Below, piece after piece: positions 7,872 through 57,257 of a stretch of 64,000 bases of DNA. The stretch comes from Alphaproteobacteria bacterium (GTDB taxonomy: Bacteria; Pseudomonadota; Alphaproteobacteria; MPNO01; UBA830): assembly GCA_965243135.1 (NCBI GenBank), contig OZ251539.1, positions 640,001 to 704,000 of the forward strand, written 5' to 3'. The notes beneath the pieces are model-generated. The model did no database searches, was not told the origin of the DNA, and worked only from the letters and a program-made list of their open reading frames with translations. Made by a program: the position numbers and the translations under genes. Each line of letters begins with the position of its first letter. The stretch's first letter is position 1.

Positions 7872-7920
7872 AGTGCGCCGGTTCCGCCGCGGCGCGCCGT
7901 TTTCCGGGAGCGGAACGCCG

Positions 7921-9977: not shown

Positions 9978-10011
9978 TGGATATGATAATATCCATAATA
10001 GCGAATTATGG
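9978..10011. promoter_or_regulatory. Operator-like palindromes upstream of the hipBA-like operon
   Basis: TGGATAT-N4-ATATCCA (9978-9995) and CCATAAT-N5-ATTATGG (9993-10011) in an AT-rich patch just before the HTH gene. Confidence 0.5.
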
Positions 10012-10026
10012 GATTTAAGGGCTATC

Positions 10027-12522: not shown

Positions 12523-12530
12523 GGGAAAGG

Positions 12531-16446: not shown

Positions 16447-16620
16447 CCGCTCGCCGACATAACCGTTCCGCGGGCGGGCGTCGCGTCGCGAAGACAGGGC
16501 TGGGCGGCCCTCGGCGTCACGCTCCCGAACTCTCGGACGACGAGCGCCGCCGTGAAAAAAATCCTCGATTCGCGGAACGGTTTCGCGCGGCCGGCGGCTC
16601 GGGGTTAGTTGCACAACGAA
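16447..16620 (+). repeat. Dispersed structured repeat, copy 4 (partial)
   Basis: CCGCTCGCCGACATAACCGTTCCGCG..CGATTCGCGGAACGG..CTCGGGGTTA matches copy 1. Confidence 0.85.
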
Positions 16621-16632
16621 GGAGGCGGGAAC

Positions 16633-32300: not shown

Positions 32301-33020
32301 GGCGGGCGGGCGGATCAAGGCGGGGGTCCGCACTGCGTCGACGCGGCAGGCCCTCCGCCGGCCAGCCTGCGAGACCGTCGAGAAAACGCCCGTCGGCGCT
32401 CTTGGTTCTCGCCAGACGGCAACGTTGCTTACCGCCGCGCAGACCGGCCGATCCCGGAGGTTCGAGGGCGCCGTTGCCGGTCTTGCGGCTGAGCGATGCG
32501 CCATCGGACGCGGCGCGTCGGTCCCGGCAGTTCCGCCAACGGCGCCGGACGGAAAGCAACTCATGATCGCGAAGCGCATCCGGTTCGCCCGTGACCGTTT
32601 TCCCGTTCGCCGGTTCGGGCGGAGCCCACGGGCGTTTTCGGCAGGCGGGCGACGTTCGCCAACAGCCGGTCGCGCGAACTTCATGGAGGTGCCGCGAGCG
32701 ACCGGGATGCGAAGATTCTTCGGTTCGGCGGCGTTCTCGAGGCCGAGCCCCGCCTCGGCTCGCGCCGCTCGCTGCGAAAGCGGCTTGACCCGTGTCGAAC
32801 GGAGAATCGCTGAAAAATCGGTTCCCGACGGAAGACTATCGGCTCGTACGCGCTGCGACTCTCGCGCAGCCGCTTTCGAGCGGCGACGCGGCGACGCTGC
32901 CCGGATTCTCGAAGCCGGCAGTTGAAGAAATTTGTCGTCGGCGGTATTCAACCCTCTTGCGACGAGGCGCAGGCCGGAAGGACGTTCGGGGCGGGCTCGT
33001 CGGCGGTTCGGGAAGGCATC

Positions 33021-34289: not shown

Positions 34290-34290
34290 G

Positions 34291-37200
34291 GTGCGGCTGC
34301 GGCGGCTGGATCTTGTGCGCTACGGACGATTCACCGATCGTTCGTTCGAACTGCCCGCAGGCGCGCCGGATCTCCATGTCCTGTTCGGCCCCAACGAAAC
34401 GGGCAAGTCCACGGCGTTGTCCGCGATCGAGGATCTGCTGTTCGGCGTTCCGGTCCATTCGCCTTACAATTTCCTTCACCCGTATTCCAGCATGCGCATC
34501 GGCGGCGTCGTCGAAAACGATCAAGGGTCGCTCGAGGCGATTCGCCGGAAGGGCGCGAAAGACACCTTGCTGGATTCCGGCGACGCGCCGTTTCCCGGGG
34601 GCGAAGCCGCGCTTCGGCCGTTTCTGGCCGGAGCCGACCGGCTTTTCTTCGAGCGAATGTTCAGTCTCGATCACGTTCGGCTGGAAAAAGGCGGCCGCGA
34701 AATCCTGCAGGCGAGGGACGAACTTGGCCAGACGCTCTTCTCCGCCGGAACCGGCGTCGAGGGGCTGCGAGGCCGGCTTGCGCGGCTCTCGGACGAAGCC
34801 GACGGATTGTGGGCGAAGAAGAAAGCCAGACACCGCGAATACTACCAGGCGGACGACAGGCGGAAGGAGGCCGAAAAGAGTCTCCGCGACAACGCGCTCT
34901 CGGCCAACCAATGGCTGGAAGCCAAAAAGGCCAGGGAAGAGGCAGAATCCGCGCATGACCGGATCAACTCGGAATTCGAGAGGATCTCGGCGGAGGGCGC
35001 GCGGCTCGCCCGCGTTCGCAGGGTATATCGCTACGTTCGCCGCAAGGCCGACCTGGAGCGCGAAATCGACGCCATGGGCGAGGTCGCGCTTCTCCCGGAA
35101 AACGCCCGGCAGGCGTTCGAGGAGGCCGGGCGCAGGGAAGCGGAGGCGTCCGCCCGGATCGAAACGCTTTCCGGAACGCTGGTCAGGGCGCGGAAAGAAC
35201 TGGAAGCGCTGTCCTGCGACGACCGGCTGATCCAGCGAGCCGACGAAATCAAGCATCTGGACGAGCAGCGGATTGCGATTCGCCCCGAACGGGTCGACCT
35301 CCCGAAGCGGCGCGCGGAGCTCGCGGCCGTGGAGGACGAGGTGCGCGCGCTGGCCGGCGAACTTGACTGGAACGAGACGGAAGTCGACGGGCTCGTCGCG
35401 CGCATTCCGGCTCGCGGAAAGGTCGCCGCCGCGCGATCCCTGTTCGGTCAGCACGGCGGGCTCGCCTCGGACCTTAGAAGCGGCGCCGCCGCGTTGGAAG
35501 AGGCGGAGGCGCAGCGGAACGGTTTGCAGGAACGCTTCGAAAATGCGTCCGAAACCGCTGATTTCTCCCGGCTGGACGCGGCGATCAGGGCGGTTCGGGC
35601 GCGCGGCGACCTGTCCGGACGGGTCGGCCTCGCGGAACAAGGGCTTCGGGAAGCGCAACGCCGGGTCGACCAGGTTCTCGGTTCTCTGCAGCCTGCCGTT
35701 CCGGACGACCAAGACGTCGTGAAGATGCCGACTCCTCCGCGGGCCGCCGTACAGAAGCATCGCGACAAGGTTCGGGATTGGGAGCGTCGAGTCGGCGAAA
35801 CGGATCGCGACAGGGAAAATCTGGAGCAAGAACAGCAACGCGCTCGCGCTGACCTGCAAAGGGTCAGGAGGGATACGCGCGCCGTCATGGCGGAAGAGCT
35901 TCGGGAAGCGCGACGCGGCAGAGATTCCCTCTGGGAAATCGTAAAGCGGGTGCATGTCGAGGGGATGGCTGTTTCCGAAGGGGACGAAGCGCCGGAGGAT
36001 CCTGCGGCGGAATTCGAGGTGGCCGTGCGCGAAGCCGACGAACTCGCCGACCGAAGGTTCGACAATGCCGAGGCTGCCGCGACGCTGGCGGAAATGTCCC
36101 GAAGCATCGACGAGCGTCAGGGACGTCTGGATCAACTGCGCAAGCGGAGGGAAGCGCTTTCCGGAGAAGGCGAACGGCTGGGTGCCGATTGGCGATCCCT
36201 TTGGGGCGGCGCGGCATTCGAACCGCTCGGCCCCGACGAGATGCTGGAATGGCTGGGCGGGCGCGACGAACTTCTGGAGGCGACCGAACGCCTCGGCGAG
36301 GCGGAGGGCGCGTTGCAACTTGAGCGGGAGAGCGAACGCGCCGCGCGAGAGAGCCTCCTGACGGAGCTGGGGGATCTTGGCGTCGACCGTTCGGAGCTGG
36401 AGAATGAGGCGCTGCCCGTCGTTCTGGAGCGCGCGGACGGCATGCGGACGGAACTTCTGGCCGGAGCGGAGGCAAGGACGCGTCTGGAGGAGGAACTTCG
36501 GGAAGCCGCGTCGGAAGCCGACCGCAAGCGCAGGGAACAGGCTCGCGCGAAACAGGCATGGGAGCAGTGGCGGGAAAATTGGTCGGAAGCGCTGAACGAT
36601 CTCGGCTTTTCCGCTTCGACGAATCCGGATGTCGTGTCGGCGCGGATCGACGTCATAGACCGGATGCGCGAGAAGGCGGCGCAGATCGAGGAACTGCGCG
36701 ATCGCCGCGTCGCCAAGATTGATCGCGACATCGAACAGTTCGAGGCCCTTGTGGAGCGCGTGGTTGGAAACCTGGACCCCGATCTTGCAGGCGGCGACGC
36801 CGAAAACGCGGTTCTCGAGATCGGAAGGCGCCTCGACGAGGCGCGGCGCATAAGCGACCTCCGGGCCGCCAAGAAAGAGGAAATCGAGAAAGTCGAGGAA
36901 AGCGCGCGCGGCCACGAAAGGGATCTTCAGGAAGCGCGCGAGTCCTTCGGCCATCTGCTGGAGTTAGCCGGCGTTTCCGGAAAGGACGAACTCGACGGCG
37001 CCATCGGGAAGTCCGACGAGTTCCGCCGGTTGCGGAACGAACTGAACGAGACGCTGCGGACGCTCAAGCAGGAAGGCGACGGCCTGTCGGCAGGCGACCT
37101 GGAGGTCGAATGCGCGGATGCGGATATCGACCGAATCCCTGCGCAGGAAGAAACCAACGCTGGCGAATTGAAAGCGCTGCAGGATCGGTTGACGACAGTG

Positions 37201-37809
37201 GCTGAACAGAGAGCGCAGGCCAGGGAGGGGTTCGACGCGATCGGCGGAGACGACGCGGCGGCGAGCGCCGAGGCGGCGCGGCAGGAAGCCTTGGCCGAGA
37301 TTCGCGACGTATCCGAACGCTACGTCCGTTTACGGACTTCGGCAACGTTGCTGCGCTGGGCGATCGACCGATACCGGCGCGAAAGGCAAACGCCGCTTCT
37401 CAAGCGCGCCGGGGAGCTCTTCTCGACGATTACCGGCAATTCGTTCAGCGAACTCGGGGTCGCGTACGACGATAAGGATCAGGCGCACTTGACGGGTCTG
37501 CGGCCGGACGGACAGGTCGTCGAAGTGCCCGGCATGAGCAGCGGAACGGCGGATCAGCTCTATCTGGCTCTTCGCATTGCGAGCGTGGAAGACTATCTGA
37601 ATCGGACCGAGCCCTTGCCGTTCGTCGCCGACGATCTGTTCGTAAACTTCGACGACGGCCGGGCGGCGGCCGGCTTCGAAATACTGGGAACGCTGGCGGG
37701 GAAGACTCAAGTGCTGTTCTTCACGCATCACGCGCATCTCGTCGAAATCGCGCGAAAGGCGCTCGGCGACTCGATTTCGGTGGTCGAACTGGATGCCGAA
37801 GGGGAATGA
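34291..37809 (+). CDS. yhaN: YhaN-type SMC/Rad50-like coiled-coil ATPase (AAA_27)
   Basis: YGRF, GPNETGKST, long coiled coil, MSSGTADQLYLALR, DDLFVNFDD and FTHH. Confidence 0.85.
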   Translation: MRLRRLDLVRYGRFTDRSFELPAGAPDLHVLFGPNETGKSTALSAIEDLLFGVPVHSPYNFLHPYSSMRIGGVVENDQGSLEAIRRKGAKDTLLDSGDAPFPGGEAALRPFLAGADRLFFERMFSLDHVRLEKGGREILQARDELGQTLFSAGTGVEGLRGRLARLSDEADGLWAKKKARHREYYQADDRRKEAEKSLRDNALSANQWLEAKKAREEAESAHDRINSEFERISAEGARLARVRRVYRYVRRKADLEREIDAMGEVALLPENARQAFEEAGRREAEASARIETLSGTLVRARKELEALSCDDRLIQRADEIKHLDEQRIAIRPERVDLPKRRAELAAVEDEVRALAGELDWNETEVDGLVARIPARGKVAAARSLFGQHGGLASDLRSGAAALEEAEAQRNGLQERFENASETADFSRLDAAIRAVRARGDLSGRVGLAEQGLREAQRRVDQVLGSLQPAVPDDQDVVKMPTPPRAAVQKHRDKVRDWERRVGETDRDRENLEQEQQRARADLQRVRRDTRAVMAEELREARRGRDSLWEIVKRVHVEGMAVSEGDEAPEDPAAEFEVAVREADELADRRFDNAEAAATLAEMSRSIDERQGRLDQLRKRREALSGEGERLGADWRSLWGGAAFEPLGPDEMLEWLGGRDELLEATERLGEAEGALQLERESERAARESLLTELGDLGVDRSELENEALPVVLERADGMRTELLAGAEARTRLEEELREAASEADRKRREQARAKQAWEQWRENWSEALNDLGFSASTNPDVVSARIDVIDRMREKAAQIEELRDRRVAKIDRDIEQFEALVERVVGNLDPDLAGGDAENAVLEIGRRLDEARRISDLRAAKKEEIEKVEESARGHERDLQEARESFGHLLELAGVSGKDELDGAIGKSDEFRRLRNELNETLRTLKQEGDGLSAGDLEVECADADIDRIPAQEETNAGELKALQDRLTTVAEQRAQAREGFDAIGGDDAAASAEAARQEALAEIRDVSERYVRLRTSATLLRWAIDRYRRERQTPLLKRAGELFSTITGNSFSELGVAYDDKDQAHLTGLRPDGQVVEVPGMSSGTADQLYLALRIASVEDYLNRTEPLPFVADDLFVNFDDGRAAAGFEILGTLAGKTQVLFFTHHAHLVEIARKALGDSISVVELDAEGE

Positions 37810-40739: not shown

Positions 40740-41262
40740 CTATCGCCTGATGCTTTCAATCATCGCGACATCGATATCAACTCGTTCATCAACGATCACT
40801 TCGCGGCTGGGTGACGAGCGGCCTTTCAGCGGTCCAAGCGTTATGACAACGCCCTCGGGCTTCATGGCCTCGACAGCTGGAATCGTGTCGCTGTCGCCGG
40901 TCAAGAGGACAATAACGCGGTGCTTTACAGCCAAGAGCGTCATGTCCACGCCGAGCATCATGTCGACGCGTTTCTGGATGAAGATCGGCTTTCCGCTCTC
41001 GGTCGTACCTTGGATCTGCAGCTTGCCGAGCCGAACTTGGAAGCGCGGAATATGGCTAATGGCGTCGATGAACCGGCGCTTGGAATCGAAGCGACCCTGT
41101 TCATCTGCGGTCGGTGGACGTAAGGCATGCAATGATAGGCTCGAAGCATCTCGTCTTGGCATGCCGTTACCTGTTCGAGCCTCTCCATATCGATGCGGGC
41201 TCCGTCGTGGTCTTGTTGCAAAACCTTAAGCCTCCGCCAATATAGATCGCACATGTTCCCAT
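40740..41262 (-). pseudogene. NYN-domain (LabA/DUF88, PIN-like) RNase, frameshifted
   Basis: QKRVDMMLGVDM and LLTGDSDTIPAV. N-terminal parts MGTCAIYIGGG and EMLRAY are in two other frames. Confidence 0.8.
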
Positions 41263-44523: not shown

Positions 44524-45987
44524 CTAAAGGGCCGACGTCCGCCAGAGATCGATAGCGCGAATGATACTTTCTTCAAGCCAGGGAGAAAAGCGATTCTCCG
44601 CCTGCTGCCTCGGTTCCCTGTAGTTGATCTGGAATACGCTGTCCGTCACAGGCTTGATCGCCCCTATCTCGCGTTCCCCCTCTTCGGTTTCGACTCTCTG
44701 GAACCAGCAAGACGAACATGCGAGCACGCCCTGATATTCCGGTCCAATCCCGTGAAACGATATCAATAATTCGCTTTGGTCGGTATTTCTCATAACCAAC
44801 CTCGCCCAAGAGCGATATGTGTGGGTATTTGCAAAATAACCAAGTTCTTTCGCTGTCTGCACGATTTGAAAGCGATAATAATGGTCATTGCTTTCGCCGT
44901 GTACGGCGCCGCCCGAAAAGAAAGTCGCATTCGTTATCAGTCCCTGCGTTTCCCTCTTCATGGTTTCCGCTATTTCGCTCAGGCGTTGAACCGTAGATTC
45001 GTGAAGCGATTTGGCGAGGTCTCGCGCAGCTTGCCATTCTTTCGCTAAAGATTGCTTCTTTTTCTGTAATTCTTTCCGAACTGCCAGAATTGCGTCCTCG
45101 GCGCGAGCTGATTTGATAACATCTTGGGCAATGCTCAAGGCTCTTATGAATTCGTCCTTTTGCAATCTTGAAAAATACTCGACCAATTGTCCGAGATCGC
45201 CCGCATCCGCAGCCTCGAGAGCTCCAATGTAAATGCTGCGCTCCCGGTCACGAACGACTAGCGGAAACCAACCATGCTTCACGAAAACCAGCGTAGCCAG
45301 CGCTCTTGCCACGCGCCCGTTCCCATCCTGAAAGGGATGAATTTGAGTGAATCTGTGATGCAGCCATGCTGCTTCCACTTCAGGTTGGACGCTGCTCCTT
45401 TCGTGATCGAGATGCATATCGATCAAACGATCCATTTCGCCGGATACGTGAATAGGCGGGCAATACTCATGAACTGCGCCATTATGCCTTTGGGGATTGT
45501 TGGGTTGTTTTTTGTACTCTCCAGAAATCAACGGGACTTGAACGGTTCTTCCCAAATTATCGACGCCTTCCACCGTAGATTGATGATTGGTAAAACGACA
45601 ATGTATTTCCTTTATATAACTTGTCGATAAACTGCGTTCTCCTTTTATGAATTCAAAAATGCCGTCGACAACGGATTCGTGATCGTTGATCATGGAAACG
45701 ACGATTTCAGGGTTTCGTGCCGCATTATGTGGAATGAGTGATGCGTCAATACCGTGTTCGATCAACAGCTGAGTGATGCCTCTATCGAGAACGTATAGGC
45801 GTTCAACCAAACCGGTTTCTATAGCCCACTCGCGCTTCAATTTTTCGTTAAATTTTTGGAACGCGTCCAATCCTTGGAGTCGGTCTCGTTGTTCTTGCCA
45901 TACGCTTGCAAGCGTTCTGAGTTCGGGTTGCGACAGTTTTTCCGGGCTAACGGTATAGTCGTCAATCGGCGTCCATCCATGGTTCAT
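44524..45987 (-). CDS. Fic-family protein with long C-terminal extension
   Basis: Canonical HPFQDGNGRVAR motif and AIETG; visibly lower GC than its neighbours. Confidence 0.92.
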   Translation of the reverse strand: MNHGWTPIDDYTVSPEKLSQPELRTLASVWQEQRDRLQGLDAFQKFNEKLKREWAIETGLVERLYVLDRGITQLLIEHGIDASLIPHNAARNPEIVVSMINDHESVVDGIFEFIKGERSLSTSYIKEIHCRFTNHQSTVEGVDNLGRTVQVPLISGEYKKQPNNPQRHNGAVHEYCPPIHVSGEMDRLIDMHLDHERSSVQPEVEAAWLHHRFTQIHPFQDGNGRVARALATLVFVKHGWFPLVVRDRERSIYIGALEAADAGDLGQLVEYFSRLQKDEFIRALSIAQDVIKSARAEDAILAVRKELQKKKQSLAKEWQAARDLAKSLHESTVQRLSEIAETMKRETQGLITNATFFSGGAVHGESNDHYYRFQIVQTAKELGYFANTHTYRSWARLVMRNTDQSELLISFHGIGPEYQGVLACSSCWFQRVETEEGEREIGAIKPVTDSVFQINYREPRQQAENRFSPWLEESIIRAIDLWRTSAL

Positions 45988-47413
45988 GGAAGGTTCTCCA
46001 GAACAGCCATCGTCCGGTGCAAGTTATCTCTCTTCGAATCTGGAGATGCGTATCGGACGAAGAATTTCGTGCAGAAGACAATATAGATGAGATGCTTGTC
46101 CGGTCAAGGTCGGACGCTCAAGCCTGCGTCACGCTCTTCGCCGCAGGCGAGCGTCGGTGCATTCTTTCGGTCAAGGCGTCCGAGGCCGATCAACTGTGAG
46201 CGCATGGCCATCCGCAAGACGCCGAAGTGGTTCGCGGATCTCCCTGTTTTCGGAATGGTCGCATGCTTCCATGCTGTCCACGGCGGGGAAAGGGCTGAGC
46301 AAATCCGCGCGAAGGCGCGCTGCGCCTTCCGACGGTAGCTGTAAGTGCGCATTGCGAGGTATGGCGCTTCTGAAACGCGGCGTCCGTCCGTCTTTCCCGA
46401 TCGAGGATCGCTTTGCGCCATGCCGTACCCCAACCGCCAGGCGTCGACGTACATCGTGCTTGGCGACCCCGGTTCGTCGAGTAACGCTACCCGTCCTTCG
46501 GAACGGTATGGAAGCCCTGCCGCCTCGCTGTTTCCGCAATCTCCTGCTCGGAAACCACATCGTCGAGGGCGCGTACGCGCAGGGCGGCGCCGACAGCCGC
46601 CCCGCGCCTGCTCTTCAAAATCATCCGCGCTGGCAAGATGCTGGCGGCTCAGACGCTCGTCGGCTTCATCGTGCCCGAACTGCGCTTCGGGCCAGCGGAA
46701 GCGCGCAAGTCGAGGTTCGCGACGCTCTATCGTCAGGTCGTTCCGCAGGTGATGAAGGTGTGTTTTCTTCCGCTCGTCGAGACAGGACAGCATTTCCTTC
46801 GCGAAACGTCAATAGCGCTTTCCGGACTTATGGCCGGAAGGGCTTTCCGCCGTGGCGAACCGAGGTAACGGAGCAAGGATCCGGAGACGGCTCGGAGATC
46901 ATGCAGGACATCGGCATAAAAATCGTTGATGCATGCATAACCATGGCCGACATGCAGTGCGTCAAGTCCCGGTCGAGCACAGCCTCCTATGGTCTCGGAC
47001 CGAGCCGCCGCCAATTCTACAGGAGCCGTTCAGCGAGCAGGTAGCTGGCAGCGGCCGACATCCACGCGCTCGACGTCTTTGACGACGGCCGGCAAGCTGT
47101 CGTTCGCCGTCATGGAGAGCAGGCCGAAGGTTGCCTCCGCTGGGCCCCGCCAAGGGATTCGCAGGACAGGGGATTTTCAGTTCGTTCGACCATCTCGCCA
47201 GCCCGCCGGCCCGTCTCGGCATGGCGTTGCCGCTGCCCGGTTCGTAGCCGCCTCCCGTCGCTCGCCGAGACGGCCTCGTCGGCTCGGCAGCGAGAATTGT
47301 CGACAGCTCGTTTTCTCCGAGGCTGCCGACCGGTCGATGCGTTCGGAACGAATTCGCCGGGCCGTCGGGCATACGGTATGCTGGAGCGTCCCGAGACGGA
47401 AGTGACGCTCTGC

Positions 47414-49600
47414 ATGAATTCTTCGATTCCTGCCGCCGACCGCGAAGTTCTTGCCGGCCCTGTCGAGCGGGTAACCTTTCACAACGAAGAGAACGGGTAC
47501 TGCGTACTGCGCGTCAGGGCGCGAGGGCAGCGCGAGCCGGTCGCCGTCATCGGTTACGCTGCGACCGTTTCCGAGGGCGAATGGATTACCGCTTCCGGCG
47601 ATTGGGAGGAGGATCGCAAATACGGTCGGCAGTTTCGCGCCGGGTTCATAAGGGTGTCCGAACCCACGTCCGCCGACGGGATCGAGAAATATCTCCGTTC
47701 GGGCATGATCCAGGGCATCGGGCCGATCTATGCGAAGAAACTGGTGCGCGCGTTCGGCGACCGCGTGTTCGAGGTGATCGAAGAGACGCCCGAGCGCCTT
47801 CGGGAAGTGGACGGCATCGGCCCCATGCGGGCGGAAAGAATAACGGCCGCCTGGGCCGAGCAGAAGGCGGTCCGCGAAATCATGATTTTTCTGCACGAGC
47901 ACGGGGTCGGGACGGCGCGCGCGGTCCGCATCTTCAAGACCTACGGCTCCGATGCGGTCCAGGTGATGACCGTCAACCCATATCGTCTGGCGCGCGACAT
48001 TCGCGGCATCGGATTCAAGATCGCCGACGCCATCGCCATGCGGCTCGGCATAGAAAAGACTGCCGAGGTGCGAATCCGGGCCGGGATTTCCCATGCGCTC
48101 GCCGAAGCGGTGGAGGAAGGACATTGCGGCTTGCCGAAGGACGAGCTTCTTCCCTTTGCTGCGGAGCTTCTGGACGTTCCGGCGACGCTTGTCCCTTCCG
48201 CCCTCGATCTGGAACTCGGGGATGGACATGTCGTCGCCGACGAGGCCGACGGGACGCCGTGCATTTTCCTGGCGAACCTTTACCGGGCCGAGCGGATTAT
48301 CGCCGGCAAATTGCGTTCGCTTTCCGCCGGCGCGCTTCCGTGGTCGCCGATCGATCCGCATCGAGCGTTGCCGTGGCTCGAACGGCAAACCGGGTTCAGG
48401 CTTGCGGATGGCCAGAAGGAGGCCGTCCGCATGGCGTTGGCGTCGAAGGTCATGGTGGTCACCGGCGGTCCGGGCGTCGGCAAAACGACGATCGTAAATT
48501 CCATTCTTCGCATTCTGTCGATCAGGAAGGTTCGCATCGTCTTGTGCGCTCCGACCGGCCGCGCGGCCAAGCGCATGAGCGAGGTCACCGGCAAGGAAGC
48601 CAAGACCATACATCGGCTTCTCGAAGTCAACCCCAGGTCGGGCGGCTTCAGGCGGAACGCCGATAACCCGCTCGACTGCGAACTCTTGGTGGTCGACGAG
48701 ACCTCGATGGTCGACGTTCCTCTCATGCTGGCGTTGGTGAACGCGGTTCCCGACAGCGCCGCGCTGTTGATGGTCGGCGACATCGACCAACTGCCCTCGG
48801 TCGGTCCGGGACAGGTGCTTGCCGACGTCATCGGTTCCTCGGTTCTCCCGGTCGCGCATCTTGCGGAGGTGTTCCGTCAGGCGGCTCGCAGCCGCATCGT
48901 CGAAAACGCGCACCGCATCAACGAAGGGATCGTTCCCGATCTCGGCAAGCCCGACCGCGAGAGCGACTTCTATTTCGTGCCGGCGGAAAACCCGGACGCC
49001 GCGGCGTCGAGGATCCTCGATCTCGTCCGCAACCGCATACCGCAGCGTTTCGGTTTCGATCCGGTGCGCGACATCCAGGTCCTGTGCCCCATGAACCGCG
49101 GCGGATTGGGGGCCCGCTCGCTCAACGTCGAGCTGCAGGCGGCCCTGAATCCGGCCGGCGACCGCAAGGTGGAGCGTTTCGGATGGACGTTCGCGCCCGG
49201 CGACAAGGTCATGCAGATCGAGAACGACTACGACAGGGACGTCTACAACGGCGATATCGGCTACGTCGTCGATGCCGATCCCGAACTCGGCGAGGTGACG
49301 GCTGAATTCGACGGCCGCAGGGTGGTCTATCGCTTCGGCGATCTCGACATGCTGGTGCCGGCCTACGCGGTCACCATCCACAAGAGTCAGGGTTCGGAAT
49401 ATCCCGCGGTCGTCATTCCGCTCATGACGCAGCATCACGTCATGCTGCAAAGAAACCTGCTCTACACGGGCGTCACCCGAGGCAAGCGGCTGGTGGTCCT
49501 CGCCGGTCAGAGAAGGGCCGTCGCCACCGCGGTGCAGAGCGTGTCCGGGCGCCGCAGGTGGTCGAGGCTCCGGGAATGGATGGGCGGAACGGCATCCTGA
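47414..49600 (+). CDS. recD2: ATP-dependent RecD-like DNA helicase (RecD2/TraA type)
   Basis: HhH motifs (GIGP), NPYRL, GGPGVGKTT, APTGRAAKR, DETSM and YAVTIHKSQGSE. Confidence 0.93.
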   Translation: MNSSIPAADREVLAGPVERVTFHNEENGYCVLRVRARGQREPVAVIGYAATVSEGEWITASGDWEEDRKYGRQFRAGFIRVSEPTSADGIEKYLRSGMIQGIGPIYAKKLVRAFGDRVFEVIEETPERLREVDGIGPMRAERITAAWAEQKAVREIMIFLHEHGVGTARAVRIFKTYGSDAVQVMTVNPYRLARDIRGIGFKIADAIAMRLGIEKTAEVRIRAGISHALAEAVEEGHCGLPKDELLPFAAELLDVPATLVPSALDLELGDGHVVADEADGTPCIFLANLYRAERIIAGKLRSLSAGALPWSPIDPHRALPWLERQTGFRLADGQKEAVRMALASKVMVVTGGPGVGKTTIVNSILRILSIRKVRIVLCAPTGRAAKRMSEVTGKEAKTIHRLLEVNPRSGGFRRNADNPLDCELLVVDETSMVDVPLMLALVNAVPDSAALLMVGDIDQLPSVGPGQVLADVIGSSVLPVAHLAEVFRQAARSRIVENAHRINEGIVPDLGKPDRESDFYFVPAENPDAAASRILDLVRNRIPQRFGFDPVRDIQVLCPMNRGGLGARSLNVELQAALNPAGDRKVERFGWTFAPGDKVMQIENDYDRDVYNGDIGYVVDADPELGEVTAEFDGRRVVYRFGDLDMLVPAYAVTIHKSQGSEYPAVVIPLMTQHHVMLQRNLLYTGVTRGKRLVVLAGQRRAVATAVQSVSGRRRWSRLREWMGGTAS

Positions 49601-49927
49601 ACGGCGACCTCTCCGGCCTGCCTCTTCCTGCCGGTCCCACTCCCTGCCGCCGAGCCTCCACGCCTCCGCCTCGTGTCCTGGCGACGACGTGGATTCCGCA
49701 GGGACGCGCTTCACGCTCCTGGCCCACCGGCAGGACAACCGAGGGAACGGACTGTACGCAAGCGCCAGGAGCCGTGGGAGGTGTCGGCGCGCGCGGCGGC
49801 ACGGAGTTCGGGGATCGCAGGGAGGTTGCCGAGGCTCGCGCCGTTCTTCCTCGCCATGCGCCGGTTTGACGGGCGGCGGCGATGCGCCTATAGTGACCCC
49901 AACGAGAAAATCGTGGAAATCAATGAA

Positions 49928-50731
49928 GTGACCAGTTTCGAACAAGCGTTCGGCGATGCGGAAAACGCGGCCGAAGCGGCCCGAAAGTCCGCGTCCCAGG
50001 TGGTCTCGCAGGCCAAGGCCCTGACGAAAGCCGCGCAAAGCGGCAACATCGCCGCCATCAAACGCGGCCAGGAGAAACTCAAGGAAGCCTTGGCGGAGCT
50101 TGAGCAGGAGGTTTCCAACGCCAGCGCCTGTTGGCCGTTTACGGACGAGGAAGAGAAGCGGAAATTCGACGACGGATATGCCGCCGAGCTCCAGAACGCT
50201 GCCGACGGGATCGGCCTGAAAATCTACGAACGGGACGGACTTCTGATTTCCTATCCATCCATCGTGCGCACGTTGTCGGCGGACTGCGCCGTGAGGGTGG
50301 ACAGGAAGAAGGTTTCCACGATAAGGCCGTCGTATCTTGCCGATTTTCTGCTCAAAAATCAGAACAAATCCAGCGGGTTTCCGCCGGAACGTTTTCTTGA
50401 GACGTTGCATGCCGTTTACAAGGAAGTGGTTTCCGAAGGGGCTTCGGGTCTTGCGCAGGGCAGCGGCGGCCGCGTCGTTCCGCTGGCCAGAATTTACAGG
50501 CTGATAACGGCCCTGCCGGGCGGTTCGCGGGAATACGATCGCGCGGATTTCGCTCGGGATCTGTACAAGCTCGACTCGGAGGGGATCGACCGCACCAAAA
50601 GCGGAGCCGCGGTCTCCTTTCCGTCTTCGACGGGAACCCGCCGGCGTTCGAGCGACCTGTTTTCGTTCGTCGGACCGGACGGCAATAACGTCGAGTACTA
50701 CGGCATCCGCTTCAGTGAGAACGACGCATGA
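49928..50731 (+). CDS. Hypothetical protein, first gene of the DUF2791 cluster
   Basis: Helical/coiled-coil N-terminus and alpha/beta C-terminus (IRPS, VPLARIY, YDRADFARDLY). ATGA-coupled to the next gene. Start uncertain. Confidence 0.75.
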   Translation: MTSFEQAFGDAENAAEAARKSASQVVSQAKALTKAAQSGNIAAIKRGQEKLKEALAELEQEVSNASACWPFTDEEEKRKFDDGYAAELQNAADGIGLKIYERDGLLISYPSIVRTLSADCAVRVDRKKVSTIRPSYLADFLLKNQNKSSGFPPERFLETLHAVYKEVVSEGASGLAQGSGGRVVPLARIYRLITALPGGSREYDRADFARDLYKLDSEGIDRTKSGAAVSFPSSTGTRRRSSDLFSFVGPDGNNVEYYGIRFSENDA

Positions 50732-51687
50732 ACAACGCGATATCCGGCGACGAGTGGCTTGACGTCATTGATGCGGAATATCTTTCCACCTTCGTCAGGG
50801 ACGGCGGATCCGCCGTCAAATTCGCGGTGACGGGAGAGGAACGAAGACCGTCCATATCGGAAAAGATAAAACTCAAATGCGAGGCGTCGAATTACGTTTT
50901 TGCGCAACTGAACGCCGTCGACAGCCGCATGCATATGCCGCAGGACATTTTTTTCGGACTGGCGTCCCGGATCGACTGGCGGCTATTGGCGCGCCGCGTC
51001 GTCTTGCGCCTTCTTTCGGAGACGAAGTATCGCGTCGACGGCATCGATCCCGGCGGGGCCGGCAACGTCGTCGACGCCGTAGCTTACGCCAACGGGCTTG
51101 AATCTCAAACCGTTGTCTTCGAACTTAGGAGGGCCTTGGAGAGGGAGGTATTGAAAAATCCCAATCTGGCGAAGGCGTTTCGCGGGGCCATGCATCATCT
51201 CTGCCTGATCGAGTGCGATAGCGCTGCGCCCGGGGAGTATGCCGGGCAGCCGTTGCTGGATTGGCTCACGGGCGTCAACATCCGCGTCGGCAACGTGCGC
51301 CAGTTCGGGATACATACCGGCATAAATCGAACGACGGCGCGCTATTTCGTGGAGTCGGCCTTTCACTGGGTGCGTCAGGCGGAATATTCCGGAACGGTCA
51401 TTTTTTTGGACAACAGCCGCGTGCTCTTGGCTCGCAACCCGAGAGACGGCCGACGATACTATACCAGGGCGATGACGATGGATCATTACGAATTGCTGCG
51501 CGAGTTTATCGACGACGTGGATCGATTGTCGGGAGCGTTGCTGATCGTTGCGACCGATTACGATTTCGTGGACGAGCAAGCGCCGAGGGGGTGGAGCGTC
51601 TACGACGCGCTTCGGACGAGAGTGATGGACGACGTGCGGGACAGGAACCTGGTCAATCCAGCGGCCGCGCTGGTGAGGCTTTCATAG
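50728..51687 (+). CDS. DUF2791/BrxD-like protein with degenerate P-loop
   Basis: EYLSTFVRDGGSAVKF, ELLREFIDD and YDALRTR resemble the BrxD family. The Walker A position reads VTGEERR and the Walker B position reads IFLDNS. Confidence 0.65.
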   Translation: MNNAISGDEWLDVIDAEYLSTFVRDGGSAVKFAVTGEERRPSISEKIKLKCEASNYVFAQLNAVDSRMHMPQDIFFGLASRIDWRLLARRVVLRLLSETKYRVDGIDPGGAGNVVDAVAYANGLESQTVVFELRRALEREVLKNPNLAKAFRGAMHHLCLIECDSAAPGEYAGQPLLDWLTGVNIRVGNVRQFGIHTGINRTTARYFVESAFHWVRQAEYSGTVIFLDNSRVLLARNPRDGRRYYTRAMTMDHYELLREFIDDVDRLSGALLIVATDYDFVDEQAPRGWSVYDALRTRVMDDVRDRNLVNPAAALVRLS

Positions 51688-51699
51688 GGGGCCGGTCGG

Positions 51700-52962
51700 A
51701 TGCCGAACCAGGAAAACGCGACGCTGGATTCCCGTCGGGCGATCGAAGCTTTGCGCAACGGCGTTCCGAACCGGGAAGCCGTGCGCCAGTTGGGCTGCAA
51801 TCAGCCGCAGGCGATCGCCCGTTTCCGCGAGATGCTGGATCATGCTGTCGAGCGTCGCGAGTCTCCGGACCGGGGCATGGTGATTTCGGGAGATTTCGGT
51901 GCGGGAAAGTCGCACCTTCTGGGTTATCTGGAACACATGGCGCTGTCCCGGAACTTCGTTTGCAGCAGGGTGGCGATCAGCAAGGAAACGCCGTTCTACG
52001 ATCTCGGAAAGGTGTTCGCGTCCGCCGTCGAGAACGGTCGCCTGCCCGACCGGGGCGGACGCTTCGTCGAAGAGTTGGCGGCGGCTTTGAAAAGCGACCC
52101 GGACGCATGCGGGGATTTCCTCAGGTGGGCCGAGGTTGCCGCCGACGACGGACTCTTGAATCAAGTCTTTGCCGCGAGCCTGCGAGTATACGATAGAACT
52201 CAGGATTCCGAATTGAGTCACGATATCGAATCCTTTTGGGCCGGAGACAGAATGCGGACTGCGAGCATACGCGGCGGGCTCAGGCAGATCGGGGAGTCGA
52301 AAAAGTACAAGTTCCGGGCTCCGAAGGTTTCGGAACTCCCGCCTCAGCGGCTTCGGTTCGCGATCGAGCTCGTCAAATACGCAGGTTACAATGGCTGGGT
52401 CATTTTGCTGGACGAAATCGAACTTATGGGTTCGTATTCGATATTGCAGCGCGGACGTTCCTATGCGGAGGTGGCGCGATGGATGGGACTCGCCGAAGGC
52501 GAGGCGTACCCCGGGATGATCGCGGTCGGCGCGGTAACGGCGGATTTCGCGTCCGTCATCATCAGTCCCGACGGGCAGAAGAGGGACCGGGACTACATCC
52601 GTCCGAAGCTGGAAGGCAACCCCAGATTCAACGTGATTTGCGGACGGGCGGAAGCCGGCATGCGAGTGCTGGAGGACGACTGCCTGGCCTTGGAATCGCC
52701 CAGCGAAGCGGACTTGAATCAAACCGTGGAGAAGTTGCGGCTGTTGTACGAAAACGCCTATGGGTGGTCGCCGCCTATGCAGAATGCGACCATCGGAGGC
52801 GCGGGATTCCAGAGACGAATGCGACACAAGGTGCGCGCCGCGATCAACGAATGGGATTTGATCCGGCTGCATCCTGATTACGGACCGGATACGGAGGTCG
52901 ATCCTTATTCTACAGGATACGAGGAAAATTCCGATCTGGAGCGCGAATCCCGGGACGGGTAG
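51700..52962 (+). CDS. DUF2791/BrxD-like P-loop ATPase
   Basis: RRAIEALRNGVP N-terminus, Walker A GDFGAGKSH, ISKETP, Walker B GWVILLDEIE. Confidence 0.8.
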   Translation: MPNQENATLDSRRAIEALRNGVPNREAVRQLGCNQPQAIARFREMLDHAVERRESPDRGMVISGDFGAGKSHLLGYLEHMALSRNFVCSRVAISKETPFYDLGKVFASAVENGRLPDRGGRFVEELAAALKSDPDACGDFLRWAEVAADDGLLNQVFAASLRVYDRTQDSELSHDIESFWAGDRMRTASIRGGLRQIGESKKYKFRAPKVSELPPQRLRFAIELVKYAGYNGWVILLDEIELMGSYSILQRGRSYAEVARWMGLAEGEAYPGMIAVGAVTADFASVIISPDGQKRDRDYIRPKLEGNPRFNVICGRAEAGMRVLEDDCLALESPSEADLNQTVEKLRLLYENAYGWSPPMQNATIGGAGFQRRMRHKVRAAINEWDLIRLHPDYGPDTEVDPYSTGYEENSDLERESRDG

Positions 52963-52985
52963 CTTCCGGCCGGCCGGAACGCAGC

Positions 52986-55013
52986 GTGCCCATACCCTTC
53001 CGCGAGGAAAGCGAGTCCGCCGGCGTCGTGGCGTGGCTGCGGGTCGTCGAAGACGGGCGCGGCGTTCGGGCCGCTCTTTTCGAAACTACGGTCGCCGGGG
53101 AGCCGCTGGGGTATTGTTTCGCCGGGGCGGGAGAAGACCGGCTGGATGACCGCGCCGCGGCCGGCGCAAGATTGGCGAAATCGCTGTTCCGCGCGTCCCC
53201 GAATTCGCCGGTTCTGCTGCTGGGATCGGCGGACGATCCGCTTCCAGGGGCGGACGAGATAGGCGTGCCGTTCGGTCGCGTTCGACCGGCATGGCCGCCG
53301 CCCGCGGTCGCCGCCCCTGCGAACTGCGCCGACGGCCTGTCGTGGTCGACGGAGCCGCCGCGACCGGCATCGGAGGCCGCCGGAGCGCTTCGCGAAATCG
53401 GGAAGCGGGCCGATCCGTTCGAACCGCTCGAGCGGACGGCCAAGGGGCTCGAAGAGGCGTTCGGCGATCCGCAAGTTCGGACCCTGACCGGCCTTCAGGG
53501 CCTGACGACGGTCATTTCGTTGCCGCCGCCCCCTGAAGCCCCGGGAGCGCCGGATACCTTCGGGGAATCGTCTTTCCGATTTCCGCCGGAGAGCGCGGTC
53601 GGCCGCGGCCTGGCGGAACGGTTGTGGAGGATTCTGGCCAAGCCCCGGAGAATCCCGCTCTTGGATACGCGCCTGGAATGGCCGGCGACCCTTATGCCGT
53701 TTCAGCTCGACGGAGTGCGCGCGTTGATCGAGATGGATCGCCTGCTTCTGTCGGACGACATGGGGCTGGGCAAGACCGTGCAAGCCGTGGCGGCGTTACG
53801 GCTTCTCAAGCTGGGCGGACGGATCCGGTCGAGCCTTGTGGTCGCTCCCGCGAGCGTGCTCGATCAGTGGAGGCGGGAGATCGCGAAGTGGGCGCCGGAA
53901 CTGTCGGCGATCATCGTCCGAGGCTCGGCCGAGGATCGAGCTTGGCAATGGAAGGCCGCGACCGATTGTACGCTGACGAGTTACGAAGTCTTGCGTTTCG
54001 ACGCGGGCGATCTGCGCAAGCTCAGGGCAACGCCGTGGGACGTCGTCGTGTTGGACGAGGCGCAGCGGATCAAGAACCGAAACGACACCAGCGAAGCCGT
54101 GAAGAACGTTCCGAGGCGCCGTTCGTGGGCGTTGACGGGCACTCCCATCGAGAATCACGAGGACGACCTGGCTTCCATCATGGAGTTCGTCGACTGCGAC
54201 GGAAAAACGCCGCCCAAGCGTTACTTTCCCGGCGCGGCGCTGCTGACGCGGCATCGGGAAGTGCAGCTCCGGCGAAAGAAGAGCGACGTATTGAAGGAGC
54301 TGCCTCCCAAACTGGAGACCAAATTGGCGATTGCGTTGCATCGGGAGCAGTGGGCCAGTTACGAAAAGGCGGAACGCGAAGGGATCGTATTTCTCAAGTC
54401 GCTCGGAAAAGAAGTCGGCATCGGCCACATGCTCGAACTGATTACCCGCCTGAAGCAGATTTGCAACGCCGATCCCAGAACGGGAGCCTCAAGCAAGCTG
54501 GACAATATACACGACAGACTGCGGGAGTTGACGGCGCAAGGCCACAAGGCTCTGGTTTTTTCTCAATACGTCGGCGACATTTCGGGCGTGGCCGCCGCCG
54601 CCAGGCGCCTGCGCGAGTTCAATCCGCTCGTTCTGACGGGCGACACTCCTCTGGAGGAGCGTTCGTCCCTATTGGATCGATTCAAGACCCGGGACGAGCA
54701 CAAGGCGATCGTCATATCGTTGCGGGCGGGCGGCCTCGGGCTTAATTTGCAGGAGGCCTCCTACGTTTTCCATCTGGATCGCTGGTGGAATCCCGCCGTC
54801 GAACGACAGGCGGAGGACAGGAGCCATCGTCTCGGGCAGAAGGTCAAGGTGAACGTGATCAAGTACTCCTGCGTCGGCACGATCGAGGAACGCATAGACC
54901 GAATTCTGGAGCAAAAGCAGAAGTTGTTCGAGAAGGTCGTCGACGACGTCTCGCTGGACCTGTCTGCGCGACTCAGCCGGGAGGAAATGCTGGAATTGTT
55001 TGGACTGCGTTAG
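52986..55013 (+). CDS. SNF2-family helicase with unassigned ~220-aa N-terminal region
   Basis: Motifs DDMGLGKT, VLDEAQRIKN, LTGTPIEN, SLRAGGLGLNL and WWNPAVERQAEDRSHRLGQ. Confidence 0.92.
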   Translation: MPIPFREESESAGVVAWLRVVEDGRGVRAALFETTVAGEPLGYCFAGAGEDRLDDRAAAGARLAKSLFRASPNSPVLLLGSADDPLPGADEIGVPFGRVRPAWPPPAVAAPANCADGLSWSTEPPRPASEAAGALREIGKRADPFEPLERTAKGLEEAFGDPQVRTLTGLQGLTTVISLPPPPEAPGAPDTFGESSFRFPPESAVGRGLAERLWRILAKPRRIPLLDTRLEWPATLMPFQLDGVRALIEMDRLLLSDDMGLGKTVQAVAALRLLKLGGRIRSSLVVAPASVLDQWRREIAKWAPELSAIIVRGSAEDRAWQWKAATDCTLTSYEVLRFDAGDLRKLRATPWDVVVLDEAQRIKNRNDTSEAVKNVPRRRSWALTGTPIENHEDDLASIMEFVDCDGKTPPKRYFPGAALLTRHREVQLRRKKSDVLKELPPKLETKLAIALHREQWASYEKAEREGIVFLKSLGKEVGIGHMLELITRLKQICNADPRTGASSKLDNIHDRLRELTAQGHKALVFSQYVGDISGVAAAARRLREFNPLVLTGDTPLEERSSLLDRFKTRDEHKAIVISLRAGGLGLNLQEASYVFHLDRWWNPAVERQAEDRSHRLGQKVKVNVIKYSCVGTIEERIDRILEQKQKLFEKVVDDVSLDLSARLSREEMLELFGLR

Positions 55014-55141
55014 CGTGGAAGGCGTCGCCGCCGACTTGGCCCGCAGGCGGGCGGACGCTCCGATGGCGGGTTGCCGCGGCGCGGGGCACCTTTCGTCAAA
55101 TAATAGTTGATTCCGCGAATCGGCGAGGCTACTATCGGCGT

Positions 55142-57257
55142 ATGCAAGTTGGACTTCACCGTTTCCATGCGGACAGCATCGAGTGGCTCCGAACTGCGGT
55201 CGCCGAAGGCGGTCGCACCCGGCGTCAGCTGGCGCAAGAGCTGTGCGAGCGCGAGAACTGGCGCAACGAGAAGGGCGAACTTTGCCTCGCCTCGGCGCGG
55301 CGCGTTCTGCCGAAGCTCGCCGGGAAACTCGGGATCGCGTTGCCGCCGCCGCGGGAGCGCCTGCCGCAGAAGGCGCCGACCCGGGATTTTCCGGATCTGC
55401 CGCTTCGCTGCAGTCTGACGGAGATCGGCGAGGTCGCGCTGGAGCCGGTTTCGGGGAGCGCCGACAGGCAACGGTGGCGTTCGATGATGGAGACCCATCA
55501 TCCGCAGCGCTGGATGCGTCCGCCGGGCGCGCAAAGGTGTTACTGGATCGCGTCGTCCCGCCATGGCCGGCTGGGCGGCATCGGTTTCTGCGCCGCCGGC
55601 TGGCACCAGAAAGCGCGCGACGAGTTCGTCGGCTGGTCGGCGGACGCGCGGGTCGCCAACCTTCAGCGGATGGTCAACAACAACCGATTTCTCCTGTTGC
55701 CGGGGGTGCGCGTGCACGGGCTTGCGTCGCGCGTTCTCGACCTCGCGGCGGCGCAATTGCCCGGCGACTGGGAAGCCGCCTACGGCGTGCGTCCGCTGAT
55801 GGCTTACACTTACGTCTCTCCCGACCATTCGGGCGCCTGCTATCGCGCGGCAGGGTGGGAGCGCTGCGGCAGACCGACTTCGGGGCTGCCGCCGGGCGCC
55901 GAGGCGAGGGGCGTCGGGCGGTCGGTCTGGATGAAGCCGTTGGCCGCCGACTGGAAGGAGCGGCTGCGCCGGAAGCCGGAGCGGACGCTCGGCCTCGCCC
56001 CCGAGGCACCTCCGTCCGACGATTGGGCGGAACGGGAATACGGTCGCGGAACGCACCCGGACGGACGCATTCGCGGTCGCATGGTACGAATGGGGCGCGC
56101 GTGGGAGGAACGTCCCGGCCAGCCGGTACCGGTAATCTTCCCGGACAAGGAAGATCAGGACGCGGCCTACCGGCTGCTGTCGAACCCGAGGGTGAACGTG
56201 GAGCACGTTCTCGAGTCGCACGAGGAATGCATGGTCGAGCGCTGCCGCAGGGAACGCGTGGTTCTGGCGGTTCAGGATACGACGATCCTGAACTGCAACG
56301 GCCTGCAAGCCGCCGCCGGTCTGGCGCCGCTTGGCGGCGGCGGGTCGGGAACCAAAGGCGTCGCCGCCCATTTCGGACTTGCGATCACGACCGCAGGACG
56401 CCCGCTCGGGGTCTTCGAGGCCGCCGTGCGCGACGACAAGGACGAAAGCGTCCGCTGGCTCAAGCACTTCGACAAGGCGCAGGAGATTGCGCGCGCCTGT
56501 CCCGGCACGCGGGTCGTTGCCGTGTGCGACCGGGAAGGAGACATCTGGGAACTGCTGTCGAGGGCGGTCGCGGCGGGCGCCGGCCTGGTGGTGCGCACCT
56601 GCCGCTCGAAGCGGCGGCGCGTGCTGTGCGAGGACGGCGGCAAAAAGGGTCTTTGGGACTACATGGCGGAACGGCCGGTGCTGAGATCGCTGAACCTCGC
56701 CGCCTGCGGCGGCGGGAAAACGCGCAAGAAACGCGAGGCGACGCTCGACATCCGCGCCGCCCGCGTCCGGCTCGCGCCGCCCGGCGACAGGACCGGCGAC
56801 GCGCCTCTCTCCATGCTCGCCGTGTCGGTCGCAGGACCGCAAGATCGGCTGTTGCTCGCCACCGAGGGAAAGACCGAAAACGCGATACGCATTGTCGAAT
56901 GGTACGAACGGCGCTGGACGCTTGAAGAATACTTCAAGACCCTCAAGTCCGGCATGGGCGTCGAAGACCGGCGATTCGACGACGCCGACGACCTTCGAAA
57001 GTGCCTCGCCTTCGACGCGGTCACCGCATGCCGGGTCTTCGACCTCCGGGCGCGGGACAGGCCGGACGCTCCCGCCGCCGAAGTCCGCGGACGAAGATGA
57101 AATCGCGGCGCTTCGCCCCGCCGAACGAGGCATGGTCAAGAGCGGGAAGCCGGCCGAAAACCTCGACGGCCGAACCTTCGTGGTCGGCGCAGGACGGGCT
57201 TTCGTCTCAACGCCGGCCGTTGCCCGGAACCATCCGGCGAGGCCGCGGCTGCCTTGA
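55142..57257 (+). pseudogene. DUF4338 fused to an IS4 (IS50/Tn5-like) transposase, eroded C-terminus
   Basis: NNNRFLLLP..LAS..CYRAAGW (DUF4338), then WAEREYG, AAYRLLSN, VQDTT, VCDREGD and YERRWTLEEYFKTLKSG (YREK). Frameshift near 57090. Confidence 0.85.

Follow-up and report, generated by a model that had tools for sequence, protein, structure and literature searches.

We analysed a 64,000-nucleotide stretch of the genome of an Alphaproteobacteria bacterium (GCA_965243135.1, contig OZ251539.1, positions 640,001 to 704,000), which we call the window. Positions 49928-55013 of the window carry four plus-strand open reading frames (ORFs) that form a conserved, self-contained cassette. A protein of no known family is followed by an inactive and an intact ATPase related to DUF2791 and then by a SNF2-family motor. 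The best-supported reading of this cassette, to which we give about an even chance, is that it is a nucleoside triphosphate-driven system against invading DNA (phage or plasmid). The four genes are as follows:

49928..50731, plus strand: ORF1, 267 amino acids (aa), no known family
50728..51687, plus strand: ORF2, 319 aa, inactive DUF2791 paralogue with an ORC/Cdc6-type AAA+ core
51700..52962, plus strand: ORF3, 420 aa, DUF2791 AAA+ ATPase with intact Walker A and Walker B motifs
52986..55013, plus strand: ORF4, 675 aa, SNF2-family double-stranded DNA translocase

The original prediction had described four co-oriented, tightly spaced and intact genes. The coordinates, open frames and translations bear this out. 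ORF1 and ORF2 overlap by 4 bases (ATGA), and gaps of 12 and 23 bases separate ORF2 from ORF3 and ORF3 from ORF4. The open frame of ORF1 begins at 49673, and the GTG start at 49928 agrees with the N termini of its homologues (M-x-S-F-E-Q-A-F). A sigma-70-like site lies upstream of the genes:

49866..49894, plus strand: possible operon promoter, TTGACG, 17-nucleotide spacer, TATAGT, ending 34 nucleotides upstream of the ORF1 start

It is the sole such match (10 of 12 positions) in 49400-55400. Shuffled sequence yields 1.0 site on average, about one per 6 kb, so its position alone favors it as a candidate promoter. The GC content is about 0.60-0.65 around the cassette. Because the sequence is GC rich, there are also long antisense frames, and those such as 47177..50410 (minus strand) had no family match in Pfam.

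When one genome per species was scanned with a pattern, 231 related loci came up, of which the best 80 were kept. By tblastn, 66 of these 80 loci carry ORF1, ORF2, ORF3, and ORF4, all intact and in the order seen in the window. Therefore, the cassette is more than a chance arrangement, and the gene order around ORF1 homologues is kept, as had been anticipated. The 66 intact loci come from five phyla (Pseudomonadota, Chloroflexota, Acidobacteriota, Binatota, and Thermodesulfobacteriota), and the median estimated gaps between the genes across loci are -1, 18.5, and 44 bases. There is no fifth conserved gene. After clustering of flanking ORFs from our own crude gene caller, which sometimes misses genes, the commonest family outside the core was found in 13 of the 80 loci. 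Mean pairwise identities of ORF1 to ORF4 are 0.59, 0.61, 0.64, and 0.60, and the identity matrices of the four proteins correlate (r of 0.85-0.93, highest for ORF2 and ORF3). We take these matched identities as a sign of co-inheritance, not of binding.

The 14 exceptions are of several kinds. Two loci run into contig ends (L061 and L077), three have a stop inside the ORF4 match (L029, L044, and L065), and in L012 ORF3 is split in two pieces. L009 has an insertion in place of ORF2, ORF3, and the start of ORF4. There, at L009:8939-10638, a DUF6788 gene and a 437-aa ORF of no family take the place of ORF2, ORF3, and the initial 40% of ORF4, and it looks like the insertion destroyed the cassette. 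The other seven, all in the main clade, have no ORF4: they are L011, L062, and five loci from Vicinamibacterales. These last five share flanks with L073, which does carry ORF4, and this suggests that the helicase was lost there.

More divergent loci show which genes are constant. In metagenome loci with an ORF1 32-36% identical to that of the window, the order ORF1-ORF2-ORF3 is kept in L084, L085, and L086, and L088 keeps ORF1-ORF2 up to where its contig stops. In L084 and L086 the trio is not followed by a SNF2 gene, and L085 stops right after ORF3. An evenly drawn Chloroflexota sample had the ORF1 family in 26 of 401 genomes, and we examined 20 of these carriers. (Left out were G041 [the same as L011], G123, G302, and G361, with main-clade-like E-values, and G210 and G117, with a short downstream contig.) By tblastn, ORF1-2-3 were in order in 19 of the 20 loci, and L116 had ORF2-3 only. 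A SNF2 gene lies directly downstream in 12 of the 20, with a core 50-57% identical to that of the window and an ORF1 that is 35-45% identical. It was not found in at least 3.5 kb downstream in L108, L109, L110, and L113. L118 has an N-terminal SNF2 fragment only, and three further loci are too short to tell. In the SNF2-less loci, ORF3 is followed by GroEL (L113) or by an unassigned 193-aa ORF and then an aldo/keto reductase (L108). Because the SNF2 gene is missing from seven main-clade loci and several divergent ones, the constant core is the ORF1-2-3 trio and not an ATPase-helicase pair. The four-gene form is old and widespread, and the SNF2 gene was lost or never joined in several lineages.

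The two middle genes encode the ATPase-like proteins. ORF3 matched PF10923 (DUF2791/BrxC_BrxD) with 61.1 bits and ORF2 matched it with 35.6 bits, at profile positions 191-332 only (the Pfam gathering cut-off is 22.2). In the translation, ORF3 has the Walker A motif GDFGAGKSH and the Walker B motif VILLDEIE, as first read from the sequence. Their residues G67, G69, K70, and S71 (Walker A) and D238 and E239 (Walker B) are invariant in 25 of 25 aligned sequences. ORF3 thus has the Walker signature of the ORC/Cdc6 clade (GxxxxGK[ST] and hhhhDE), whereas ORF2 does not. ORF3 also has a helix-turn-helix-like segment at its N terminus. It had been claimed that neither Walker motif is intact in ORF2, and this was correct. 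There is no GxxxxGK[ST], and the loop after strand 1 (residues 35-40, GEERRP), in the usual place of the P-loop, is unconserved. In the Walker B place (VIFLDNS), the strand ends in an invariant D228 followed by N229, a pattern of hhhhD-N with no glutamate. The ORF2 model (predicted local distance difference test [pLDDT] 84.9, predicted template modeling score 0.86) has the AAA+ alpha/beta core fold of the ORC/Cdc6 clade. Its best alignments, with their recorded values in brackets, were to the following structures:

Orc1/Cdc6, 2qby_B (10.8; 3.1; 162)
Orc1/Cdc6, 1w5s_A (10.8; 3.4; 169)
ORC subunit, 7jgr_G (10.5)
TnsC, 7rzy_1 (10.2)
BrxC, 9zdx_A (9.9; 206)

The Pfam match and the modeled core agree with the claim that ORF2 is related to DUF2791. 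When the ORF2 and ORF3 profiles were compared with PDB sequences, there were only marginal P-loop matches. Mean column identity is 69% in both the ORF2 and the ORF3 alignments. ORF2 is as conserved as ORF3, and is therefore a maintained pseudo-enzyme and not a decaying gene.

ORF1 had no match in Pfam (E up to 0.01), PADLOC, NCBIfam, PHROGs, or a PDB sequence-profile search. The family is large. There are 523 homologues of about 260-280 aa at E up to 0.001 in a 90%-clustered collection, and at 50% identity the family makes 793 clusters at E up to 0.001 and 233 at E up to 1e-30. Among the 150 clusters listed, 128 are of 240-300 aa, and the rest are mostly apparent fragments of 140-234 aa, with a few of up to 390 aa. 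Protein Atlas returned unnamed clusters only, which we treat as leads. We considered and rejected a TerB-like or other known domain: there was no match in the libraries searched, and 26 distant members gave no consistent Pfam family, even at E up to 10.

The AlphaFold2 model of ORF1 (pLDDT 83.9) has a helical hairpin (residues 4-68), a four-strand meander (100-124), helices (134-218), and a small C-terminal sheet. Foldseek found nothing at E up to 0.001 in the PDB or among viral models. In two VIA searches, the match was confined to the helical hairpin (residues 1-69), a common arrangement. The fold searches were effective for the hairpin only, and for modeled residues 95-267 or so we make no claim of a new fold. 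In 129 family representatives, the best-kept residues are G39, P110, R133, P134, Y203, F208, R210, and D211, so that near-invariant arginine, proline, and aromatic residues stand in the alpha/beta region. The same alignment contains a nuclease-like pattern, E87...D103...D125-x-K127, conserved at 92%, 75%, 78%, and 67%. This is too weak for ORF1 to be called a PD-(D/E)xK nuclease, and we keep the pattern as a lead. ORF1 is a candidate sensor, adaptor, or nuclease.

ORF4 matched the SNF2-related domain PF00176 with 153.7 bits (7e-45) and Helicase_C with an E-value of 6e-19 in Pfam. SNF2 motifs I, II, and VI are present in the translation as DMGLGKT, DEAQ, and QAEDRSHRLGQ. The core (about residues 226-675) has an identity of 0.60-0.94 over 68 sequences. 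It is preceded by a family-specific N-terminal domain of about 100 residues, moderately conserved, and then by variable proline-rich linkers. In this domain, conservation across the same 68 sequences reaches 95% or more at W17, L31, G38, P40, Y43, L67, L77, and P95. The best PADLOC matches of ORF4 were ZorD (2.5e-76), DpdE (1.3e-62), DrmD (6.5e-41), and BrxHI (2.7e-30). Its NCBIfam scores were all far under the cut-offs, the best being to a SNF2 model named by the locus tags SCO1167/SCO6262. The helicase is therefore SNF2-type, as had been proposed, and unlike BrxHI, which the available text of PMC12839542 describes as a Ski2/Lhr-like helicase.

The cassette is accessory and patchily distributed. 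It is single copy in its own complete 6.1-Mb genome, and ORF1 was found in none of 40 relatives, of which 4 belong to its genus, 20 to its family, and 16 to its order. Named ORF1 homologues are all "hypothetical protein" and come from metagenome-assembled genomes (MAGs), metagenomes, and one sponge holobiont record. Four runs labeled as sponge metagenome, all from one study, contain 27-50% of the sampled words of the window stretch, and no RNA run was listed as containing it. The cassette is almost confined to uncultured lineages, and therefore catalogues from cultured strains miss it. A concatenated-protein tree of the 66 loci and the window is ordered largely by phylum, with 7 label changes against a minimum of 4. 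A Binatia row and two Terriglobia rows fall among Proteobacteria, and a gammaproteobacterial row falls with Vicinamibacterales, although mis-binned MAG contigs could inflate the transfers seen. Most likely, the cassette is horizontally mobile. In L001 (7941-13229), the third-position GC of the cassette is 0.69-0.82 versus 0.80-0.93 in its neighbors. This contrast, measured in L001, fits a recent acquisition.

We also looked at the genes around the cassette. Three genes on each side of 26 main-clade loci gave 123 proteins. All were compared with Pfam, and 69 of them were compared with PADLOC; the other 54 mostly had clear housekeeping Pfam matches. PADLOC recognized defense genes near 7 of the 26 loci:

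L005: type I methylase
L008: type IIG enzyme and reverse transcriptase
L022: HNH
L024: methyl-directed restriction enzyme and PDC-S68
L026: PDC-S01
L043: NERD-helicase
L054: PDC-S01 fragment

A MzaA match in L001 was a false positive, the protein being a sigma factor. Toxin-antitoxin genes lie near five loci (L013, L030, L036, L050, and L054), and transposases of different families lie near five (L004, L014, L017, L026, and L069). By this raw count, taken with no background set, 15 of the 26 loci have at least one defense, toxin-antitoxin, or transposase gene within three genes.

Several other genes of the window stand out, most of them of defense, conflict, or DNA-end kinds. They came from a Pfam scan of 53 window ORFs (11 plus 42), which did not include every small ORF:

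10354-12582: HipA-like kinase
12531-13922, minus strand, and 16609-17715, plus strand: two neighboring proteins with FGE-sulfatase (sulfatase-modifying factor-like) domains
18850-20040, minus strand: AAA_21/AAA_15 ATPase, 396 aa, matching PDC-M31A, a PADLOC candidate, over its full length (E 3.6e-148)
21569-23299: AAA-ATPase_like and PDDEXK_9 protein
32922-37809: Metallophos and AAA_27 pair (SbcCD-like, with a weak LmuB match)
40740-41162: NYN domain protein
44524-45987, minus strand: Fic-domain protein, 487 aa, matching PADLOC PDC-S04 (1.6e-22) and SoFic (1.5e-20)
54785-57100, plus strand, directly after ORF4: DruA-like domain (PF14236, 2.3e-19) and IS4/Tn5-type transposase in one frame

The Fic gene is in the lowest-GC part of the window (0.51 over 44-46 kb). 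The original prediction had called nearby mobile genes frameshifted. The frame at 54785..57100 is open for 771 codons, but its IS4 match ends at position 327 of the 405 in the profile, as might be expected from a break toward the C terminus. A similar protein of 792 aa, DruA-like plus DDE transposase, is encoded near the cassette in L004 (2334-4712). The two DruA-like parts share 34% identity over 272 residues, but the transposase parts are unlike.

With a transposase directly downstream in the window and, in 5 of 26 loci, one no more than three genes away, the cassette might be mobile-element machinery. An ORC/Cdc6-like or TnsC-like pair and a motor would then serve the element's replication start or its choice of target, and the third-position GC of the L001 cassette, below that of its flanks, would suit an imported element. 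However, no transposase, integrase, or replication gene is conserved alongside, and the transposase families differ. SNF2 enzymes are translocases, not replicative helicases. We saw no conserved terminal repeats in the insertion sequence region of the window, the sole region in which repeats were sought. Furthermore, ORF1 and ORF3 were not found in PLSDB plasmids and ORF1 was not found in IMG/VR viral contigs. We consider this explanation improbable.

The absence from viral contigs and plasmids also weighs against a defense system, as do several other points. In the tree, a clade of 14 Caldilineaceae species appears to have inherited the cassette vertically, which is steadier than many defense systems. 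Housekeeping or unassigned genes are the only neighbors in 11 of the 26 loci. With no background control, enrichment near defense genes is not demonstrated, and the proximity is suggestive. No clear effector (nuclease, toxin, or NADase) is recognizable in the cassette. The paralogy of ORF2 and ORF3 rests on Pfam and on fold, not on direct similarity, since hhalign of the two family profiles gave a probability of 21% and an E-value of 0.001, with the Walker B strands alone aligned. Because the SNF2 gene is missing from several trio loci, a helicase-loading step cannot be universal. The case for defense, made from the genes and their context, is thus circumstantial. The original prediction of a distinct anti-phage or anti-plasmid module holds as far as a distinct, conserved cassette is concerned (66 of 80 loci, with no PADLOC system); its defense part goes further than this context evidence.

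Some of these same points would be expected of a cellular DNA-transaction module. In such a module, for example a RapA-like or repair remodeler, the SNF2 motor would be guided by the ORC-like pair to stalled replication or transcription complexes. It could be of use to host-associated bacteria, whose surroundings are crowded and rich in DNA. The vertical inheritance in the Caldilineaceae, the 11 loci with ordinary neighbors, the lack of a recognizable toxin or nuclease, and a weak RapA match of ORF4 in NCBIfam all agree with this. So does the place of the cassette in the window, after a bona fide RecD2 gene (TIGR01448, 866.8 bits versus a cut-off of 500). However, RecD2 is unlinked elsewhere. 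We considered it as a fifth member and rejected it, because it is a full-score housekeeping RecD2 and RecD2-like matches, all weak, lie near only 3 of the 80 loci. A cellular role also sits poorly with the absence of the cassette from all 40 relatives, with only 26 positives among the 401 sampled Chloroflexota genomes, and with the tree placements that cross phyla. In addition, several copies are decaying (stops, a frameshift, an insertion, and ORF4 loss), as is typical of dispensable accessory genes. This is the main rival explanation, and we regard it as unlikely.

If the cassette is a system against invading DNA, we infer the protein contacts, the role of ORF1, the target, and the defense function itself as follows. 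ORF3 would be a working ORC/Cdc6-type AAA+ ATPase. ORF2, a paralogue probably unable to bind or hydrolyze ATP in the usual way, would join it in a mixed oligomer, by analogy with the dead and live subunits of ORC and of clamp loaders. ORF1, with its predicted coiled-coil hairpin and basic alpha/beta domain, would pick the target or adapt the complex to it, and its nuclease-like site might also act. The ATPase pair would then recruit or activate the SNF2 motor through the N-terminal domain of ORF4. Finally, ORF4 would move along the foreign duplex, where it might strip proteins and block replication or feed the DNA to a nuclease. No methyltransferase is present, so the cassette would not tell self from non-self by modifying DNA.

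Two trio-only loci have other helicase genes nearby, which adds to the circumstantial case for defense. L086 adjoins full DrmA, DrmB, and DrmC genes, a complete DISARM core (E-values of 0, 1.3e-156, and 1.7e-31), at L086:582-6766 on the minus strand, in a separate, divergent, upstream group. On the other side, at L086:10237-14745 on the plus strand, the next protein after the trio is longer than 1503 aa and carries an AAA_22/AAA_16 ATPase at its C terminus. In L110, a 1126-aa YprA/DrmA-like helicase is encoded 1.8 kb downstream of the trio (6882-10262, plus strand; PDB 9tu7_Y at 1.5e-44 and YprA 6znp at 8e-24). A bolder and distinctly less probable idea is that the cassette represents a new immune family. 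ORF1 and the enzyme/pseudo-enzyme ORC-like pair would be a DNA-surveying core that loads a SNF2 motor onto the invader, as ORC/Cdc6 does at origins. The trio would be a portable loader, serving YprA/DrmA-type helicases as well, and would be common in uncultured host-associated and environmental bacteria.

If the cassette is a defense system, it adds a widespread and unstudied member to the ATPase-plus-helicase class, in which the mechanism is still open for BrxD-BrxHI and Shango. The cassette also offers a natural contrast for how DUF2791 proteins act on helicases: a live and dead ATPase pair, a motor that is present or missing, and a SNF2 versus a Ski2-like motor. If it is instead a repair or remodeling module, it would be a rare bacterial ORC-like loader working with a SNF2 remodeler.

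Neither PADLOC 2.0 (2023), NCBIfam, nor Pfam recognized a full system, so the original view that the cluster does not match a catalogued system in full holds when checked with PADLOC 2.0. No published account of the cassette was found in the literature searched, with supplements outside its scope, and the accessible main text of two modularity-based discovery papers does not mention BrxD or DUF2791. As far as we searched, the cassette is undescribed, although it may already have a candidate label. It could be catalogued under another name or be a divergent accessory module of Shango or BREX type 2. ORF3 does match PADLOC BrxD and SngB, ORF4 matches BrxHI, PADLOC 2.0 dates from 2023, and large candidate lists exist in supplements (PMC12839542 and PMC13069673). 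The best NCBIfam match of ORF4, SCO1167/SCO6262, is a recent model. However, ORF1 has no PADLOC match and its named homologues are all hypothetical proteins, and ORF2 and ORF3 match only BrxD/SngB, weakly and partially. The low NCBIfam scores also argue against it. No TerB or BREX core gene was found among the 53 window ORFs, and no paper was found that joins DUF2791 with SNF2; SCO1167/SCO6262 appeared in omics lists only. We think there is little chance that the cassette is already catalogued.

The closest comparison is with BREX type 2. According to the available text of PMC12839542, BrxD is a stand-alone ORC/Cdc6 AAA+ ATPase, closely linked to BrxHI and proposed to be a helicase loader. Both there and here, a DUF2791 (PF10923) ORC/Cdc6-type ATPase is directly upstream of a superfamily 2 helicase. 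However, the cassette has no PglW, PglX, PglY/BrxC, or PglZ, none of which was among the 53 window ORFs, and no flanking family is conserved in the 80 loci. This agrees with the original prediction, which had found no pglZ, pglX, brxC, or TerB gene. ORF3 scored 52.5 bits (ORF2, 33.4 bits) against the NCBIfam BrxD equivalog NF033438, whose cut-off is 350, and its PADLOC BrxD match (49.9 bits) covers the N-terminal 100 residues or so only. ORF4 is SNF2-type, with a far weaker match to BrxHI than to ZorD. Furthermore, ORF1 and the inactive ATPase ORF2 are extra.

Shango consists of a TerB-like protein, an ATPase, and a DEAD/DEAH helicase and has been shown to protect against phage (10.1101/2022.11.11.516204, in its accessible part). 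Like Shango, the cassette is a small operon in which an accessory protein comes first, then a DUF2791-like ATPase, and then a helicase. ORF3 matched SngB (PDLC03959) weakly, with an E-value of 2.2e-6 and 25 bits over residues 14-96 only. However, ORF1 has no TerB match in Pfam or PADLOC, SngC is not among the best 25 of the 44 PADLOC matches of ORF4, and the cassette carries an extra inactive ATPase.

The same genome has a second DUF2791 locus:

G000:C1:3302790-3310490 (L098: 6792-14491), plus strand: 190-aa coiled-coil protein, 301-aa ORF, three tandem PF10923 genes, helicase

The three PF10923 genes encode proteins of 481, 436, and 497 aa (E-values of 5.6e-22, 7e-25, and 2.7e-14), and a regular expression found GxxGxGKT in the third paralogue only. 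The 737-aa DEAD/Helicase_C helicase matched PADLOC BrxHI (5.6e-69) and SngC (1.9e-54). No TerB or BREX core gene was found within about 8 kb. Since this locus has a BrxHI/SngC-like helicase, arrays of DUF2791 paralogues ahead of a helicase recur, and the type of helicase is exchangeable.

The motor cores closest to ORF4 are those of Zorya type I ZorD, DISARM DrmD, and Dpd DpdE, all SNF2 motors in multigene defense systems. These matches are limited to the helicase core, and ORF4 has its own N-terminal region and no Pfam-detectable nuclease domain. It scored 150 bits versus a cut-off of 1500 for ZorD (NF041790) and 78.8 and 70.6 bits versus cut-offs of 950 and 610 for DrmD. There are no ZorABC or MotA/ExbB-type genes, no DrmABC genes, and no Dpd genes in the cassette. 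Active and inactive Orc/Cdc6 genes are also paired in other conflict systems, as the available part of PMC10853773 reports. The likeness lies in an active and an inactive gene in one operon and in the ORF2 model, which superposes on Orc1/Cdc6, ORC subunits, and TnsC. However, the partners of those pairs and of TnsC-like systems are HerA/FtsK, KAP NTPases, restriction-type nucleases, and transposases, not a SNF2 motor and an ORF1-like protein. In the pair described there, the inactive copy has lost Walker B but still has Walker A, whereas ORF2 has no Walker A at all. The cassette is best read as a variant of the theme in which a DUF2791 ATPase and a helicase act in defense, built from different parts.

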